The translations under genes were made by a program, and so were the position numbers. From sequence record PQ351811: DNA of 64,000 nt; one strand, written 5' to 3'. The notes under the pieces were generated by a model. The model made no database searches, had not been told where the DNA came from, and saw only the letters and a program-made list of their open reading frames with translations. The stretch is from Shigella phage SSG23. Positions 28,396 through 50,199 of this stretch are shown one piece after another. The number at the start of each line of letters is the position of its first letter. Position 1 is the stretch's first letter.

Positions 28396-28399
28396 GATT

Positions 28400-28427
28400 A
28401 AGCCCGTCGTTGACGGGCTTTTTTATT
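28400..28427 (+). terminator. rho-independent terminator after gp2
   Basis: Hairpin AAGCCCGTCGTTGACGGGCTT followed by TTTTTATTAT. Confidence 0.7.
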
Positions 28428-28680
28428 ATAGATCGATAGCATGAGCATAACCATGTAAGAAGTCTTTTAATTCTTCCTTATTGGTAACACGCTGTAAAAT
28501 CTCTAATGCCTTGTCGCGATCACGTAATGCACCTGAAAGGGATTTTATTTGATCATCCCTTTCTGCAATCTGCTTAAGCAGATCTGTATTGCATTTAGAC
28601 AAATAGAGAACTTCACCCCGCAATGTTGCTAATTCGTTATCCAAACGATCATAGAGTTTTAACAAAATGTCTTCTGTCAT
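28426..28680 (-). CDS. hypothetical coiled-coil protein
   Basis: 84 aa minus-strand ORF between gp2 and gp3; helical heptad-like sequence. Confidence 0.45.
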   Translation of the reverse strand: MTEDILLKLYDRLDNELATLRGEVLYLSKCNTDLLKQIAERDDQIKSLSGALRDRDKALEILQRVTNKEELKDFLHGYAHAIDL

Positions 28681-28869
28681 AAGAAGTCCTCGTATAGTAC
28701 CCGTTTTATTTATTACTGTATAAAAATATAGTTATTGGTTAAAACATAACCAAAACGAAGAAAGATCTTTAGAATAATAAAAATTTGTTTCGGTTAAAAA
28801 GTAGTCAGTGCCTCCGGCACGTCGCAAAGCGACAATTGTTAATAAATATTTTCATTTGAGGAATCGAAA

Positions 28870-30892: not shown

Positions 30893-30899
30893 TTCTATA

Positions 30900-30930
30900 C
30901 CCCGAAATTTTTTCGGGGTTTTTTGTTTTT
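30900..30930 (+). terminator. rho-independent terminator
   Basis: Hairpin CCCCGAAATTTTTTCGGGG followed by TTTTTTGTTTTT. Confidence 0.75.
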
Positions 30931-30935
30931 ATGTG

Positions 30936-30964
30936 TTGACAACCATAAACGACTATAGCATAAT
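30936..30964 (+). promoter_or_regulatory. early promoter cassette P1 (TTGACA-N17-CATAAT + conserved leader)
   Basis: GTGTTGACA...TATAGCATAAT, then CACATCGAAACGAAACAC and AGGAGAATCAAAAAAATG. Confidence 0.65.
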
Positions 30965-31004
30965 GCACACATCGAAACGAAACACACTTAGGAGAATCAA
31001 AAAA

Positions 31005-31382
31005 ATGATGATGATGTTTAAAGATAAATTCGAATGTCACTATACCCGTAACTTTGACTTAGTATCCCGCTACTACATTCATAAAGAAACTGGCACGCAA
31101 GTAGTTCTTGAATCTCACAGCGAAGTCGGATTCGATTCAACGAAAGTAGCAATTAGTGCTCGCTTCTGGGATAACGGAAAATTTGCTTATATTGCCTGGA
31201 ACGACGACGAAAATGTAATTACAGTAGCTTTCGGTGATGACTACTACACTAAAAAGACTTTTGATAGCAAGCCATCAAATGAATACCTGAAAGCGTATGT
31301 TCAGCACATGTTCCAACGTGTTCTGACCGGAATGGAAATCAATGTCATGAAAGACATTGTAGACGAAGTAAAATATTCTTAA
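31005..31382 (+). CDS. hypothetical protein
   Basis: ORF-track ORF 30933-31382 trimmed to first ATG after the RBS of the promoter leader. Confidence 0.55.
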   Translation: MMMMFKDKFECHYTRNFDLVSRYYIHKETGTQVVLESHSEVGFDSTKVAISARFWDNGKFAYIAWNDDENVITVAFGDDYYTKKTFDSKPSNEYLKAYVQHMFQRVLTGMEINVMKDIVDEVKYS

Positions 31383-31388
31383 AAACAG

Positions 31389-31417
31389 TTGACAACATGA
31401 AACGGGGGTAGTAAGAT
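31389..31417 (+). promoter_or_regulatory. early promoter cassette P2 with palindromic spacer
   Basis: TTGACA, 17 bp spacer, TAAGAT; inverted repeat GGGGGTA/TACCCCC spans the -10. Confidence 0.6.
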
Positions 31418-31448
31418 ACCCCCACAAACAAACGAAAGGAGAATCAAA

Positions 31449-31607
31449 ATGAAATTTATCGGTAAAACTTTTATGTTCGTAGCTGGTACTCTGTTTACTG
31501 CAACTCTGATAGCTGGTGGGTTGGATATCTTTACTGCCTTTGAAACTTTCGGGTATACTGTAGCGTCGGGTGCTCTCTTCGGATTAGGTTTAGCGATTAG
31601 CAAATAA
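31449..31607 (+). CDS. small hydrophobic membrane protein (52 aa)
   Basis: Short ORF (below ORF-track cutoff) after GGAGAATCAAAATG; MKFIGKTFMFVAGTLFTATLIAGG... Confidence 0.45.
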   Translation: MKFIGKTFMFVAGTLFTATLIAGGLDIFTAFETFGYTVASGALFGLGLAISK

Positions 31608-31616
31608 GGTGATAAT

Positions 31617-31811
31617 ATGGAATTGGATATGGTTAACGCAAAATTTATGGGTAAAGATAAGAAAGGTACAACATTTGTTATTAACAAAACATTGCTTCGC
31701 TCTGACCTTAAGTGGGTAACACAACAATTTGCGGAAGTCAATGAGGCTGTAGTGACCTGCTTTGTCGGTGATAAGAAAGTTTTTGAAATTGACCGTCGTG
31801 GGGGTGTCTAA
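31617..31811 (+). CDS. hypothetical protein
   Basis: 64 aa ORF with RBS, tightly packed. Confidence 0.45.
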   Translation: MELDMVNAKFMGKDKKGTTFVINKTLLRSDLKWVTQQFAEVNEAVVTCFVGDKKVFEIDRRGGV

Positions 31812-32008
31812 TGATCACTAAACTGTTTAGCAATACTTTGTTTCTGATTGCATTTGTTTTCTTTCTGTGTCTGATCATCGGTGTGATTGCAGTCGGTAGT
31901 TATTCCGGTATTACACTAGATGATTTTTGTACATTGGTTTTCTTCTCAAGTGTTCCTACACTCCTGATCGCTGTATGTGGTGCTTTTAGATGGATCTGTG
32001 ATCTATGA
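31811..32008 (+). CDS. small membrane protein
   Basis: 65 aa, two hydrophobic segments; start overlaps previous stop. Confidence 0.5.
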   Translation: MITKLFSNTLFLIAFVFFLCLIIGVIAVGSYSGITLDDFCTLVFFSSVPTLLIAVCGAFRWICDL

Positions 32009-32111
32009 CTGAACAGGAACGAATGATGTTGATAGGTGGACCGGAGTTCACTAAATTTGATGCAATTCTTATTGCGTTGGGGTTTCTTATGATCTGTTGT
32101 ATGGTGGCGCT

Positions 32112-32333
32112 ATGAGTAGCATAAAATATTTTGCTTTCTTGTGTTTTATGATGTTCTTTACATTCTTAGCATGTGTATTCTTTACATGGCTTGCTCATGT
32201 TGATAATGCAACCGGACCGTTTTACTTCTTTTGTGTGCTGTCGGTGTTGACTGGTGCTCTTGTTACGTGGATGATTCGAGATTGTTACGGAATGTATAAG
32301 TTTGAAAAGACTCGACCGAAATGGGGCAAATGA
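32112..32333 (+). CDS. small membrane protein
   Basis: ORF 32097-32333 trimmed to ATG after GGTGG; hydrophobic. Confidence 0.45.
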   Translation: MSSIKYFAFLCFMMFFTFLACVFFTWLAHVDNATGPFYFFCVLSVLTGALVTWMIRDCYGMYKFEKTRPKWGK

Positions 32334-32515
32334 TGAAACTATTTGCGTGGCTAATTATTTTAAATGTAATTATTAAGACTGTTCTCGCTGGTTTACTGAT
32401 GATACATAGCACGGAACCAGAAGAAGCATTAACGTATTGTGTTGCTTATGTGTTGGGATTCTTGCTTACTGCGTGGATGTGTGATGAATATCGAAGAATT
32501 GAGGTAAAACCATGA
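32330..32515 (+). CDS. small membrane protein
   Basis: ORF 32321-32515 trimmed; hydrophobic; overlaps neighbours by 4 nt. Confidence 0.45.
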   Translation: MMKLFAWLIILNVIIKTVLAGLLMIHSTEPEEALTYCVAYVLGFLLTAWMCDEYRRIEVKP

Positions 32516-32730
32516 AGATGACTTTTTATATCTTAGCAAGTATCATGCTTGTGATCTCTTCTGCACTATTTGCATTTCTTACCGTTTGGGGGATCTGCAC
32601 TGATGCGAAGCCGTGGGATATCGTAGAAAACACTGTTATGTTTATTATCAGTCTCATGTGTCTGTTTGATGCATTTAACTCTATCAAAGAAGAAGATCAA
32701 AAACGTCGCGAAAGAAAGCTATATAAATAA
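32512..32730 (+). CDS. small membrane protein
   Basis: 72 aa, two hydrophobic helices, charged C-terminus. Confidence 0.5.
   Translation: MKMTFYILASIMLVISSALFAFLTVWGICTDAKPWDIVENTVMFIISLMCLFDAFNSIKEEDQKRRERKLYK
32722..32729 (+). promoter_or_regulatory. candidate late promoter core TATAAATA (plus strand)
   Basis: Exact TATAAATA at end of preceding ORF, upstream of ORF-free structured region; could be chance in AT-rich DNA. Confidence 0.3.
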
Positions 32731-32735
32731 TAGTG

Positions 32736-32907
32736 AACTAAAACAGCGCGGTTAGAATGATTTGGACGTCACCTAGCCGCATTTATTGCAGCGTATGGGG
32801 TTAATCCGGTACGCTAAAGCATTCACTTGCTAGGCCGCTAGCAGGTTGGAGACAAGGAAGATTCGCTACCTTCCCTATAAGCCACTCTTCGGAGTGGCTT
32901 TTTTATT
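32736..32907 (+). ncRNA. candidate structured non-coding RNA / long 3'-UTR
   Basis: About 170 nt with no plausible ORF; several local hairpins (GCGTA/TACGC, TGCTAG/CTAGCA, GGAAG/CTTCC) ending in the terminator. Confidence 0.25.
32879..32907 (+). terminator. rho-independent terminator
   Basis: Hairpin AAGCCACTCTTCGGAGTGGCTT followed by TTTTTATT. Confidence 0.75.
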
Positions 32908-32932
32908 GCCTAAAATTTTTTAAAAAAAGTTG

Positions 32933-32961
32933 TTGACACCAAATCGTGCCTATAGCATAAT
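32933..32961 (+). promoter_or_regulatory. early promoter cassette P3
   Basis: GTTGTTGACA, 17 bp spacer, CATAAT, then CACCCATCGAAACGAAACAC leader and GGAGAATCAAATTATG. Confidence 0.65.
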
Positions 32962-33007
32962 ACACCCATCGAAACGAAACACACTTTCTTAAACGGAGAA
33001 TCAAATT

Positions 33008-33193
33008 ATGGCACGTCGCATCACTAAAGCACTGAAAGCAGTAAGCAAAGAAAACGTAGTAGCTATTCTGGTAATCTGGGGTTATAACGAAGAATCCGCT
33101 AAACAGAAAGTTGAAGCGGGGTTTGAACTGGCAGTAAAAGCAATGCCGAATGATGACTCTGTAGGGCTGGCAAATTATATCGCATATTTCTGA
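33008..33193 (+). CDS. hypothetical protein
   Basis: 61 aa ORF immediately after promoter-leader cassette. Confidence 0.55.
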   Translation: MARRITKALKAVSKENVVAILVIWGYNEESAKQKVEAGFELAVKAMPNDDSVGLANYIAYF

Positions 33194-33691: not shown

Positions 33692-33880
33692 ATGGAAGAC
33701 AAAATTGAACAATTACGCGAATCCGCTAAAGAGCATGGTATGAGCGAAGAGTTTGTAGAATGGTTTATTTCTAAAAAGGCTGATTCCTGCGGGTGCTTTA
33801 ACTTCATTACTATGTCCATTATGTGGGAAGGTTGGAAAGGTGCAGTAGAAACTGCTCTAGAAATTATGAAAAAAGACTAA
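33692..33880 (+). CDS. hypothetical protein
   Basis: 62 aa ORF with RBS. Confidence 0.5.
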   Translation: MEDKIEQLRESAKEHGMSEEFVEWFISKKADSCGCFNFITMSIMWEGWKGAVETALEIMKKD

Positions 33881-33888
33881 AAAAGTTG

Positions 33889-33917
33889 TTGACAATGGGT
33901 CGGGTGTATAGCATAAT
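33889..33917 (+). promoter_or_regulatory. early promoter cassette P5
   Basis: GTTGTTGACA, 17 bp spacer, CATAAT inside GGGTGTAT/ATACACCC inverted repeat, then CATCGAAACGAAACAC leader. Confidence 0.65.
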
Positions 33918-33959
33918 ACACCCATCGAAACGAAACACGAACTACTAAGGAGTATCAAA

Positions 33960-42668: not shown

Positions 42669-42736
42669 GAGTTAATCATAAATAAAGCCCCAGATTATAA
42701 ATATAACTGAATATTTTCAATCTGGGGGAATGACTT

Positions 42737-43039
42737 ATGTCATTTATTCGTAAAACTCTAACAGCGGCAATATGCTTGACTGCGGTCGGAAGTGTCAGTG
42801 CTGATCAATATGATCCAACTGGTGACTTTACTGATTATTTCGACGGTGCAATGATAGTATATGTAAACAAAATATCTCCTTCCATTGAAACCAGCCAGAA
42901 ATTTCATGCCCATATTATGAAGATGTATGCTCGTAGTAAATGTATGGATTCTAAGCAGTGTTTTATTATGGGGGAATATGCCGCAAAACAATTTGTTATG
43001 TTGTATAATGTGGAGAATCGAGAACATGAAATTCAGTGA
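42737..43039 (+). CDS. secreted hypothetical protein
   Basis: 100 aa, N-terminal signal peptide (LTAAICLTAVGSVSA), two Cys. Confidence 0.5.
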   Translation: MSFIRKTLTAAICLTAVGSVSADQYDPTGDFTDYFDGAMIVYVNKISPSIETSQKFHAHIMKMYARSKCMDSKQCFIMGEYAAKQFVMLYNVENREHEIQ

Positions 43040-45641: not shown

Positions 45642-45670
45642 TTGACAACCGGATCGTGGTATAGCATAAT
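45642..45670 (+). promoter_or_regulatory. early promoter cassette P7
   Basis: GGTGTTGACA, 17 bp spacer, CATAAT, then CACACATCGACAACAAAAGGAGAACCAAAATG. Confidence 0.65.
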
Positions 45671-45700
45671 GCACACATCGACAACAAAAGGAGAACCAAA

Positions 45701-46884: not shown

Positions 46885-46913
46885 TTGACAGCGATCCGGT
46901 GTTATTGCATAAT
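46885..46913 (+). promoter_or_regulatory. early promoter cassette P8
   Basis: AGTGTTGACA, 17 bp spacer, CATAAT, then CACCCATCGAAACGAGATACAC and GGAGAATCAAAAATG. Confidence 0.65.
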
Positions 46914-46954
46914 ACACCCATCGAAACGAGATACACTTTCTAGGAGAATCAAAA

Positions 46955-50113: not shown

Positions 50114-50129
50114 AATCATAAAAAAGTTG

Positions 50130-50158
50130 TTGACAGGGGATCGCCGATCCCCTATACT
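50130..50158 (+). promoter_or_regulatory. early promoter cassette P10 with palindromic spacer
   Basis: TTGACA, spacer GGGGATCGCCGATCCCC (perfect palindrome), TATACT, then CACATCAAAACGAAACAC leader. Confidence 0.65.
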
Positions 50159-50199
50159 ACACACATCAAAACGAAACACACTTTTTAAGGAGAATCAAA

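Follow-up and report, generated by a model that had tools for sequence, protein, structure and literature searches.

A conserved, predicted structured RNA at the 3' end of the dmd operon of Krischvirus phages

Positions 32731-32907 of a stretch of DNA of 64,000 nucleotides from Shigella phage SSG23 (record PQ351811), the whole of which is called the window below, appear to encode on the plus strand a conserved structured RNA module that is specific to the genus Krischvirus. The window belongs to this genus of RB49-like T4-type myoviruses. The module, termed the element here, directly follows the last open reading frame (ORF) of an early operon that includes dmd, and ends in an intrinsic terminator. 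We propose that it is a non-coding RNA that would form the 3' end of the early transcript, would be made again late in infection as a discrete RNA of ~170 nt, and is likely to act as a folded scaffold. Taken as a whole, we give this account about an even chance of being correct. No earlier description of the element exists in Rfam, the genome records examined or the literature searched.

The non-coding region and its predicted fold

The original prediction placed a candidate small RNA or structured 3' untranslated region (UTR) between a stop codon at 32730 and a terminator at 32879-32907, in a region with several stable local hairpins and no credible ORF on either strand. Each of these features is found. 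The upstream ORF (32512-32730, plus strand), which encodes 72 amino acids and is the last of the small hydrophobic ORFs of the operon, ends with TAA at 32728-32730. Beyond it, 32731-32902 is the longest stretch in the window that is free of ORFs of at least 30 amino acids in all six frames. An RNA is annotated here in none of the genome records examined. In some of them automatically annotated 'hypothetical proteins' cross the element; neither the frame nor the length of these is conserved, and we do not regard them as genes.

The plus-strand RNA of 32731-32907 has a predicted folding energy of -65.1 kcal/mol, compared with -46.3 +/- 4.0 kcal/mol for 200 dinucleotide shuffles (z = -4.66), and none of the 200 folded as well. 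The complementary strand also folds well (z = -4.19), so that folding energy alone cannot assign the strand. The local G+C content is 0.47 in the element, against ~0.38 in its flanks. The fold was obtained by single-sequence folding and by application of RNAalifold to the alignment. Both agree on an arrangement of four hairpins (H1-H4) and the terminator, with the exception of an alternative helix P1 discussed below, and the RNAalifold consensus retains H1-H3 and the terminator.

The element begins with a 5' leader, UAGUGAACUAAAACAGC (32731-32747), that contains two further in-frame stop codons (TAG and TGA) and a single indel site (none, A or G) after 32742. Hairpin H1 (32748-32780) comprises eight base pairs, an internal loop and four further base pairs, with the apical loop UUGGAC. 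All 12 pairs are formed and the stem is invariant in all genomes, the sole change being C32767 to U in the loop in one of them (L014). Hairpin H2 (32790-32815) has a lower stem of 7 bp and an apical stem of 3 bp (GGG/YCC), with a loop that varies in length and sequence. Hairpin H3 (32826-32845) has eight invariant base pairs formed between CUUGCUAG and CUAGCAGG, and a GCCG loop in which there are substitutions at 32834 (L012) and 32835 (L017). It is followed by the purine-rich linker UUGGAGACAA (32846-32855), which contains GGAG and is invariant in all genomes. Hairpin H4 (32856-32874) consists of five base pairs, GGAAG/CUUCC, and the nine-nucleotide loop AUUCGCUAC. It forms with a calculated probability of 0.83-0.88 in an RNA begun at the putative late promoter, and in L014 a change of A32858 to G turns one of its pairs into G-U.

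Helix P1 would pair 32731-32739 with 32859-32868 and close a four-arm fold, and is mutually exclusive with H4. Its calculated probability is ~0.5 only for an RNA that begins exactly at 32731, and is 0 for a start at the late promoter or for a longer messenger RNA (mRNA). P1 is invariant and so shows no covariation. Given its need for that exact start and the lack of support from covariation, we have set this cloverleaf-like fold aside.

The intrinsic terminator (32879-32907) comprises a hairpin at 32879-32900, AAGCCACTC-TTCG-GAGTGGCTT, and a T-run to ~32907. In the RNA the hairpin has nine pairs, of which seven form a G/C-rich section and two are A-U (five G-C pairs in all), with a UUCG loop, and is followed by six U (five to seven in variants). 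A G+C-rich hairpin with an immediate U-run is thus present as in an intrinsic terminator; the stem pairs are 100% conserved, and the terminator is already annotated in the GEC-3S, G2248 and Makalu phages. In FL15 (L006 553-556, equivalent to 32888-32891 of the window) the UUCG loop is replaced by its exact reverse complement CGAA with the stem intact, which corresponds to an inversion within a perfect palindrome. The loop of a further sequence (L019) reads UUAG, again with an intact stem.

Distribution and variation of the element

The element is present as a single copy in 58 of 58 Krischvirus records with 95-100% identity, as judged by a low-stringency blastn search of 50,697 phage records. 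Outside the genus that search returned only terminator look-alikes of 25-35 nt, and no match in Tequatrovirus. Over 32500-33010 the window matches Shigella phage SFHK24 exactly (100% identity), and its identity to RB49, Phi1, JSE, GEC-3S and ~50 other Krischvirus phages is 95-97%. The element is not repeated within the window on searching it against itself. There is no match to it in 5,426 complete Escherichia coli genomes or 72,556 plasmids, and it is therefore not a captured host or plasmid RNA. Metagenome and IMG/VR sources provided nine more distinct variants, the most divergent of which differ by 15-18% in the upstream ORF. Two scans of IMG/VR with 17-mers found two Krischvirus contigs only, the remaining matches being chance occurrences within unrelated coding sequence, and a scan of JGI metagenomes added two further Krischvirus contigs. 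The upstream 72-aa ORF is likewise confined to Krischvirus; a search of 5.8 billion proteins gave six clusters only, with 85-90% identity, and the contigs encoding these yielded extra variants of the element locus and no distant relative.

The original prediction suggested a scan for a known RNA family, and this found none. There were no matches in the whole window to any of the 4227 Rfam families at gathering thresholds. At E<=10 the element gave generic hairpin-and-terminator matches only, and no tRNA, ribozyme, riboswitch or CRISPR-repeat family. The best of these sub-threshold matches were EF3314_EF3315, RNAI and Ysr49, each of which, like the element, is a series of hairpins that ends in a terminator. 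They score 22-26 bits against gathering thresholds of 47-100 (the best 25.7 bits against 100), so the resemblance is generic only. ARAGORN found no tRNA genes in the window, and none in the region of the element at thresholds of 90% and 80%. We also built a covariance model of the element, R1, with 138 positions and 35 pairs. Its match at 28534-28660 on the minus strand (15.8 bits, E ~0.013) has many broken pairs and was judged to be due to chance. This match falls within the gap between gp2 (end 28395) and gp3 (start 28870). The gap, 28396-28869, contains two short minus-strand 'hypothetical' ORFs and is the second least-coding stretch in the window.

Variability was measured in an alignment of 32321-33193 from 21 genomes, as the share of variable columns in each class of site. 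In the element 10% of the stem columns are variable, and 22% of those in loops and linkers. The corresponding values for third codon positions are 27% in the downstream ORF, which is the best conserved of the neighbouring ORFs, 40% in ORF 32321-32515 and 63% in ORF 32512-32730. The stems are thus less variable than the third positions of the downstream ORF (Fisher p = 0.007), than all third positions together (44% variable; p = 3e-9) and than the loops and linkers of the element itself (p = 0.035).

Pairing is kept in all eight of the variable stem columns. Standard pairs make up 99.7% of the 754 pair-cells in 18 distinct sequences, compared with 29-49% if the partners are slid by one to three columns; the shuffle control (2/500) is not readable as a probability. 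The clearest change is at the 32791-32814 pair of H2, which is G-C in 15 sequences, G-U in one and A-U in two. This is a compensatory change with G-U as the intermediate. Also in H2, the 32790-32815 pair changes from A-U to G-U and 32793-32812 from G-C to G-U, and the apical pair may be G-U, A-U or G-C. Four stem changes are one-sided (32790, 32812, 32814 alone and 32858), and all are A to G or C to U on the plus strand. Such changes give G-U pairs on the plus strand but A-C on the minus strand, so the pattern fits only a plus-strand RNA.

The apex of H2 (32797-32805) is the most variable spot in a neighbourhood of 870 nt, with at least nine variants that include indels of 1-2 nt in 22 nearly identical genomes. 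The variants include GUUAA, GUGA, GUAA, CGA and AUUGA; several are of the GNRA type (GUGA, GUAA), and a GGG/YCC mini-stem always closes them. This may reflect either relaxed constraint or diversifying selection, which are indistinguishable here.

The late-promoter octamer and the surrounding genes

An exact copy of the T4-type late promoter core, TATAAATA, is present at 32722-32729 on the plus strand, as the original prediction had said, with a predicted start at ~32735-32737. A T4 late promoter consists entirely of this octamer, placed at -13 to -6 (PMC1524935). The site has the sequence required of a T4-type late unit, and a start near 32735 giving an RNA of ~170 nt is therefore plausible. 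There are four other copies in the window, each of them preceding the start codon of a late gene by 27-33 nt. Three are on the minus strand, at 31, 27 and 32 nt upstream of the starts of gp18 (tail sheath), a gp9-like baseplate gene and gp53 respectively. The fourth is on the plus strand, 33 nt upstream of an ORF (42737-43039) for a 100-aa RI antiholin. The copy at 32722 is thus the sole one not ahead of a late gene, though about six stray copies would be expected by chance. Since the other four are all at positions of late-gene promoters, that at 32722 is probably active as a late promoter. It is unchanged in 21 of 22 genomes, also at its three synonymously free sites, within an ORF in which most third positions vary as we have shown above. 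Taken together, a plausible late promoter and a good terminator make a late RNA of ~170 nt a reasonable prediction, and on this basis a separate RNA of that size is probably made.

The region 42696-43039 on the plus strand, just downstream of tk, contains the signal-peptide ORF 42737-43039, which corresponds to a T4-like antiholin RI (Pfam PF24205, E = 3e-23). It is unannotated in the SFHK24 record, which has instead a minus-strand coding sequence at 42758-42913 and makes the next gene too long by starting it at 42927. That gene more likely starts at the ATG at 43026.

The gene order leading to the element is gene 1 (deoxyribonucleoside monophosphate kinase), 57A, 57B, a terminator (30899-30919, plus strand), early promoters, two small ORFs, dmd and five small hydrophobic ORFs. 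The early operon that ends in the element extends over 30936-32730 on the plus strand, with promoters at 30936 and 31389. It contains ORFs of 125 and 52 aa, followed by dmd (31617-31811, plus strand; Pfam Dmd, PF17587, E = 1.5e-14) and the hydrophobic ORFs. Around dmd, between 31449 and 32730 on the plus strand, there are six very small ORFs of 36-78 aa, most of them strongly hydrophobic. Their overlapping ATGA or TGATG junctions are those of translationally coupled genes, and none has a Pfam match. They may constitute a block of membrane-acting early proteins that are co-expressed with the Dmd antitoxin.

Downstream of the element, and outside it, there is a strong sigma-70 early promoter at 32933-32961 on the plus strand (TTGACA, a spacer of 17 nt and CATAAT) that drives ORF 33008-33193 (plus strand, 61 aa, DUF7421). 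The protein encoded is 75-80% identical to proteins of T1-like siphophages such as ISF002 and pSf-2, which suggests that a small early gene has passed horizontally between unrelated families of coliphage. The promoter belongs to a repeated promoter and 5'-UTR cassette of the PeSL type at 32923-32989, made up of an A/T tract, TTGACA, 17 nt, CATAAT and the conserved leader 'CCCATCGAAACGAAAC'; repeats of it occur at 30953-30989, 33879-33938, 45660-45681, 46907-46941 and 50120-50184. The PeSL cassettes described in RB49 and phi1 have one stem-loop and a promoter directly past the upstream stop codon (Arbiol et al. 2010, PMC2839356). At our locus the terminator at 32879-32900 and the sigma-70 promoter at 32933-32961 together form a typical cassette of this kind, and the PeSL description fits 32879-32989 only. 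The additional 148 nt with the four conserved hairpins are single-copy and fall outside the definition.

Possible roles and origins

We suggest that the element would function in two phases. Early in infection it would be the 3' end of the sigma-70-driven transcript of the dmd operon, because there is no terminator between the promoters at 30936 and 31389 and the one at 32879. Late in infection the gp55-type promoter would drive its separate transcription, from near 32735 up to the terminator. The ~170-nt RNA, shielded by its hairpins and terminator, could then accumulate as a stable small RNA. It might provide a folded scaffold for a protein or an RNA-processing factor and act as a decoy or sponge, as has been supposed for the RNAC and RNAD of T4. 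H1 is constant, as are the linkers and the loop of H4, in contrast to the freely changing loops of H2, H3 and the terminator, and for this reason a folded, factor-bound scaffold is the most likely mode of action. A loop-mediated antisense role is less likely. The GGAG of the linker, at 32849, was considered as a site for RegB/S1. The sequence there is GGAGACAAGGA: position 6 is C, position 7 a purine and position 10 G, and the H4 stem takes in its 3' part. The consensus is a single-stranded GGAGRAYARAA, and C at position 6 is very rare in substrates (PMC1702504), so we have rejected this site.

A number of observations count against this account. The original prediction had called for covariation across related phages, and what was found is one compensatory pair (32791-32814) in one helix, H2, with pairing kept throughout and no second such pair. 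The stems of H1, H3, H4 and the terminator are invariant or nearly so (32858 in H4 being the exception), which neither supports nor opposes them. The thinness of the covariation reflects the identity of at least 95% among all known copies. The prediction of a small RNA or structured 3' UTR is supported in part, as regards a region that is non-coding, unusually structured, conserved as would suit a plus-strand RNA and plausibly bounded. The region is also a recombination mosaic in which the downstream ORF and its promoter cassette are well conserved too, and the low diversity may in part come from recent shared ancestry. With respect to the octamer, five copies in the window compare with 5.98 +/- 2.32 expected (the original prediction had estimated about eight), which is the level of chance. 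The copy at 32722 overlaps coding sequence, TAT AAA TA(A), the Tyr-Lys-stop codons of ORF 32512-32730, and it is not among the 17 late promoters predicted for RB49 by Nolan et al. Moreover, a metagenomic Krischvirus contig (L042, MAVA01000028.1) lacks the octamer while its element is intact and identical to that of JSE. Complementarity between the element and the rest of the window is limited to matches of 10-11 nt at the frequency expected by chance, and the literature searched included no transcriptome of the RB49 group.

In the region of contig L042 homologous to 32700-32735, 14 nt (TATATAAATAATAG) are deleted and an A-run of the ORF is longer by two A's, so that the C-terminus of the upstream protein changes from KRRERKLYK to KNVARES. 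The change may be genuine or may have arisen through faulty assembly.

Several of these points would fit a purely cis-acting 3' UTR, in which the hairpins and terminator would block 3'-to-5' exonucleases, and perhaps the entry of RNase E, and so set the half-life of the early mRNA. There would be no separate functional RNA, and the octamer would be a by-product of the Tyr-Lys-stop codons. This is a serious rival, which we consider possible but somewhat improbable. The element comes directly after the last ORF of the early operon and has no early promoter of its own, L042 retains it without the octamer, the octamer count is at the chance level, and evolution that preserves a plus-strand structure would be expected just as much. 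Yet the other operon ends in the window use a bare terminator 7-30 nt past the stop codon, as after 57B, and only the end of the dmd operon has an extra 148 nt. The unpaired linkers are invariant in sequence, which is unneeded for a mere barrier to exonucleases, and no other copy of the octamer in the window lies away from a promoter. A stabilizing 3' UTR and a small RNA are not mutually exclusive, and the data are equally compatible with both. Much less probable, in our view, is that the segment is a functionless spacer or the decayed remnant of a lost gene or ancestral tRNA cluster, its conservation being due to close kinship and homogenizing recombination at the flanking PeSL cassettes. The near identity of all copies, the high conservation of the adjacent promoter cassette and downstream ORF, the mosaic patches of divergence in the upstream ORF and the PeSL-mediated shuffling documented in Krischvirus (PMC2839356) would all accord with that. 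Against it, third codon positions are more variable than the stems, even in the most conserved flanking ORF, as are the stems' own loops, and every stem change preserves pairing in a strand-specific manner. The folding energy (z = -4.7) and raised G+C content also argue against a remnant, and no residual similarity to tRNA, protein or other phage sequence was found.

The position of the element invites comparison with T4, in which the order downstream of 57B is the tRNA cluster, rnaD, rnaC and a terminator, with TATAAATA ~340 nt upstream of the cluster. T4 RNAC and RNAD (the species 1 and 2 RNAs; rnaC at 70908-71046 and rnaD at 71053-71171 of NC_000866) are 119-139 nt in length and have been reported as late RNAs (PMC9697503). 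Like them, the element is small, highly structured and non-coding, and lies downstream of 57B on the early-gene strand with an intrinsic terminator after it and the octamer upstream. As in T4, Aeromonas phage Aes508, Acinetobacter phage ZZ1 and Klebsiella phage Roth01 carry a tRNA cluster on the same strand at a distance of 0.9-3 kb downstream of 57B; RB43-type phages have none there. Krischvirus phages likewise have no tRNA genes at this position, ARAGORN finding none in the window, and the element is 1.84 kb downstream of 57B. The genes between 57B and the element or cluster differ between Krischvirus and T4. T4 rnaC has a tRNA-like T-arm, and both T4 RNAs are processed from a tRNA precursor, whereas the element lacks both a T-loop and tRNA genes nearby; it would be either a 3' UTR or a primary transcript. 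No similarity of sequence or structure to RNAC or RNAD is detectable, and Rfam has no models for these. We regard the element as a positional and formal analogue of RNAC and RNAD, for which homology is unsupported.

True homology, whether as a diverged rnaC or rnaD or as a degenerate tRNA at the ancestral locus, is accordingly very unlikely in our estimation. It would explain the shared position and strand in T4 and three other genera, the similar size, the terminator that follows as with rnaC, and the four-arm shape that P1 would give. However, the R1 model found no homologue at E<=10 in the loci downstream of 57B of T4 (L003), Aes508, RB43, ZZ1, Roth01 or EC-F2. The element has no acceptor or CCA signature, ARAGORN is negative at 80%, the Rfam tRNA model is absent at E<=10, and P1 is not favoured in realistic transcripts. 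We give still less weight to a micropeptide. The only ATG ORF in the element, 32757-32804 (MIWTSPSRIYCSVWG, 15 codons), starts 27 nt past the octamer, within the range of 27-33 nt at the four bona fide late genes, and its first ten codons are invariant. But it lacks the GAGG-type Shine-Dalgarno sequence of those genes, its AUG is buried in the invariant hairpin H1, indels of 1-2 nt make the ORF 15, 19, 24 or more than 52 codons long, and all internal substitutions are non-synonymous. The least probable reading is an element that acts at the level of DNA, such as a replication origin, a site of recombination or packaging, or a protein-binding site. Inverted repeats do fold equally well on both strands, and the region borders the recombinogenic PeSL cassettes; the G-U-type substitutions, however, are tolerable only if the plus-strand RNA folds. 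The unwinding element that T4-type origins require is A+T-rich, in contrast to the local G+C-richness of this segment, which is single-copy and without repeats or iterons.

The two-phase RNA that we favour has further counterparts in the small RNAs that derive from 3' UTRs in enterobacteria, which share the terminator of the mRNA. Like these, the element lies directly past the last stop codon of an operon and uses the operon's own intrinsic terminator with its U-tail, and an internal promoter within the upstream ORF or at its end is possible, as in such RNAs. It differs in that no seed-target pairing was found in the window, and in that the putative internal promoter is of the gp55 type and not one for a host sigma factor. 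A more far-reaching possibility, which we think unlikely, is that Krischvirus replaced an ancestral tRNA and RNAC-RNAD cluster by one new stable late RNA, whose fold would serve to decoy some factor of the host that targets RNA, for instance a defence nuclease or an RNase. In that case the element would sit together with dmd and the small membrane proteins in an anti-host early operon.

Several Krischvirus phages are in therapeutic use or have been put forward for it. If the element is an RNA as proposed, the annotations of about 60 Krischvirus phages miss it, and some have spurious protein calls over it. Being compact and clearly bounded, and present once per genome throughout the genus, such a structured RNA would be easy to target genetically in RB49, Phi1 or JSE; the late promoter could be silenced by synonymous changes, and the hairpins could be removed with the terminator retained. 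Were it only a stabilizer in the 3' UTR, it would be a routine regulatory detail. A 2010 review of post-transcriptional control noted that T4 had as yet no functionally characterized riboswitch or small RNA acting in trans, and that no role was known for RNAC and RNAD (PMC3014915). If the element does act as a decoy, T4-type phages would have in it their first small RNA to which a function can be assigned, and it would provide a handle on the 50-year-old question of RNAC and RNAD.

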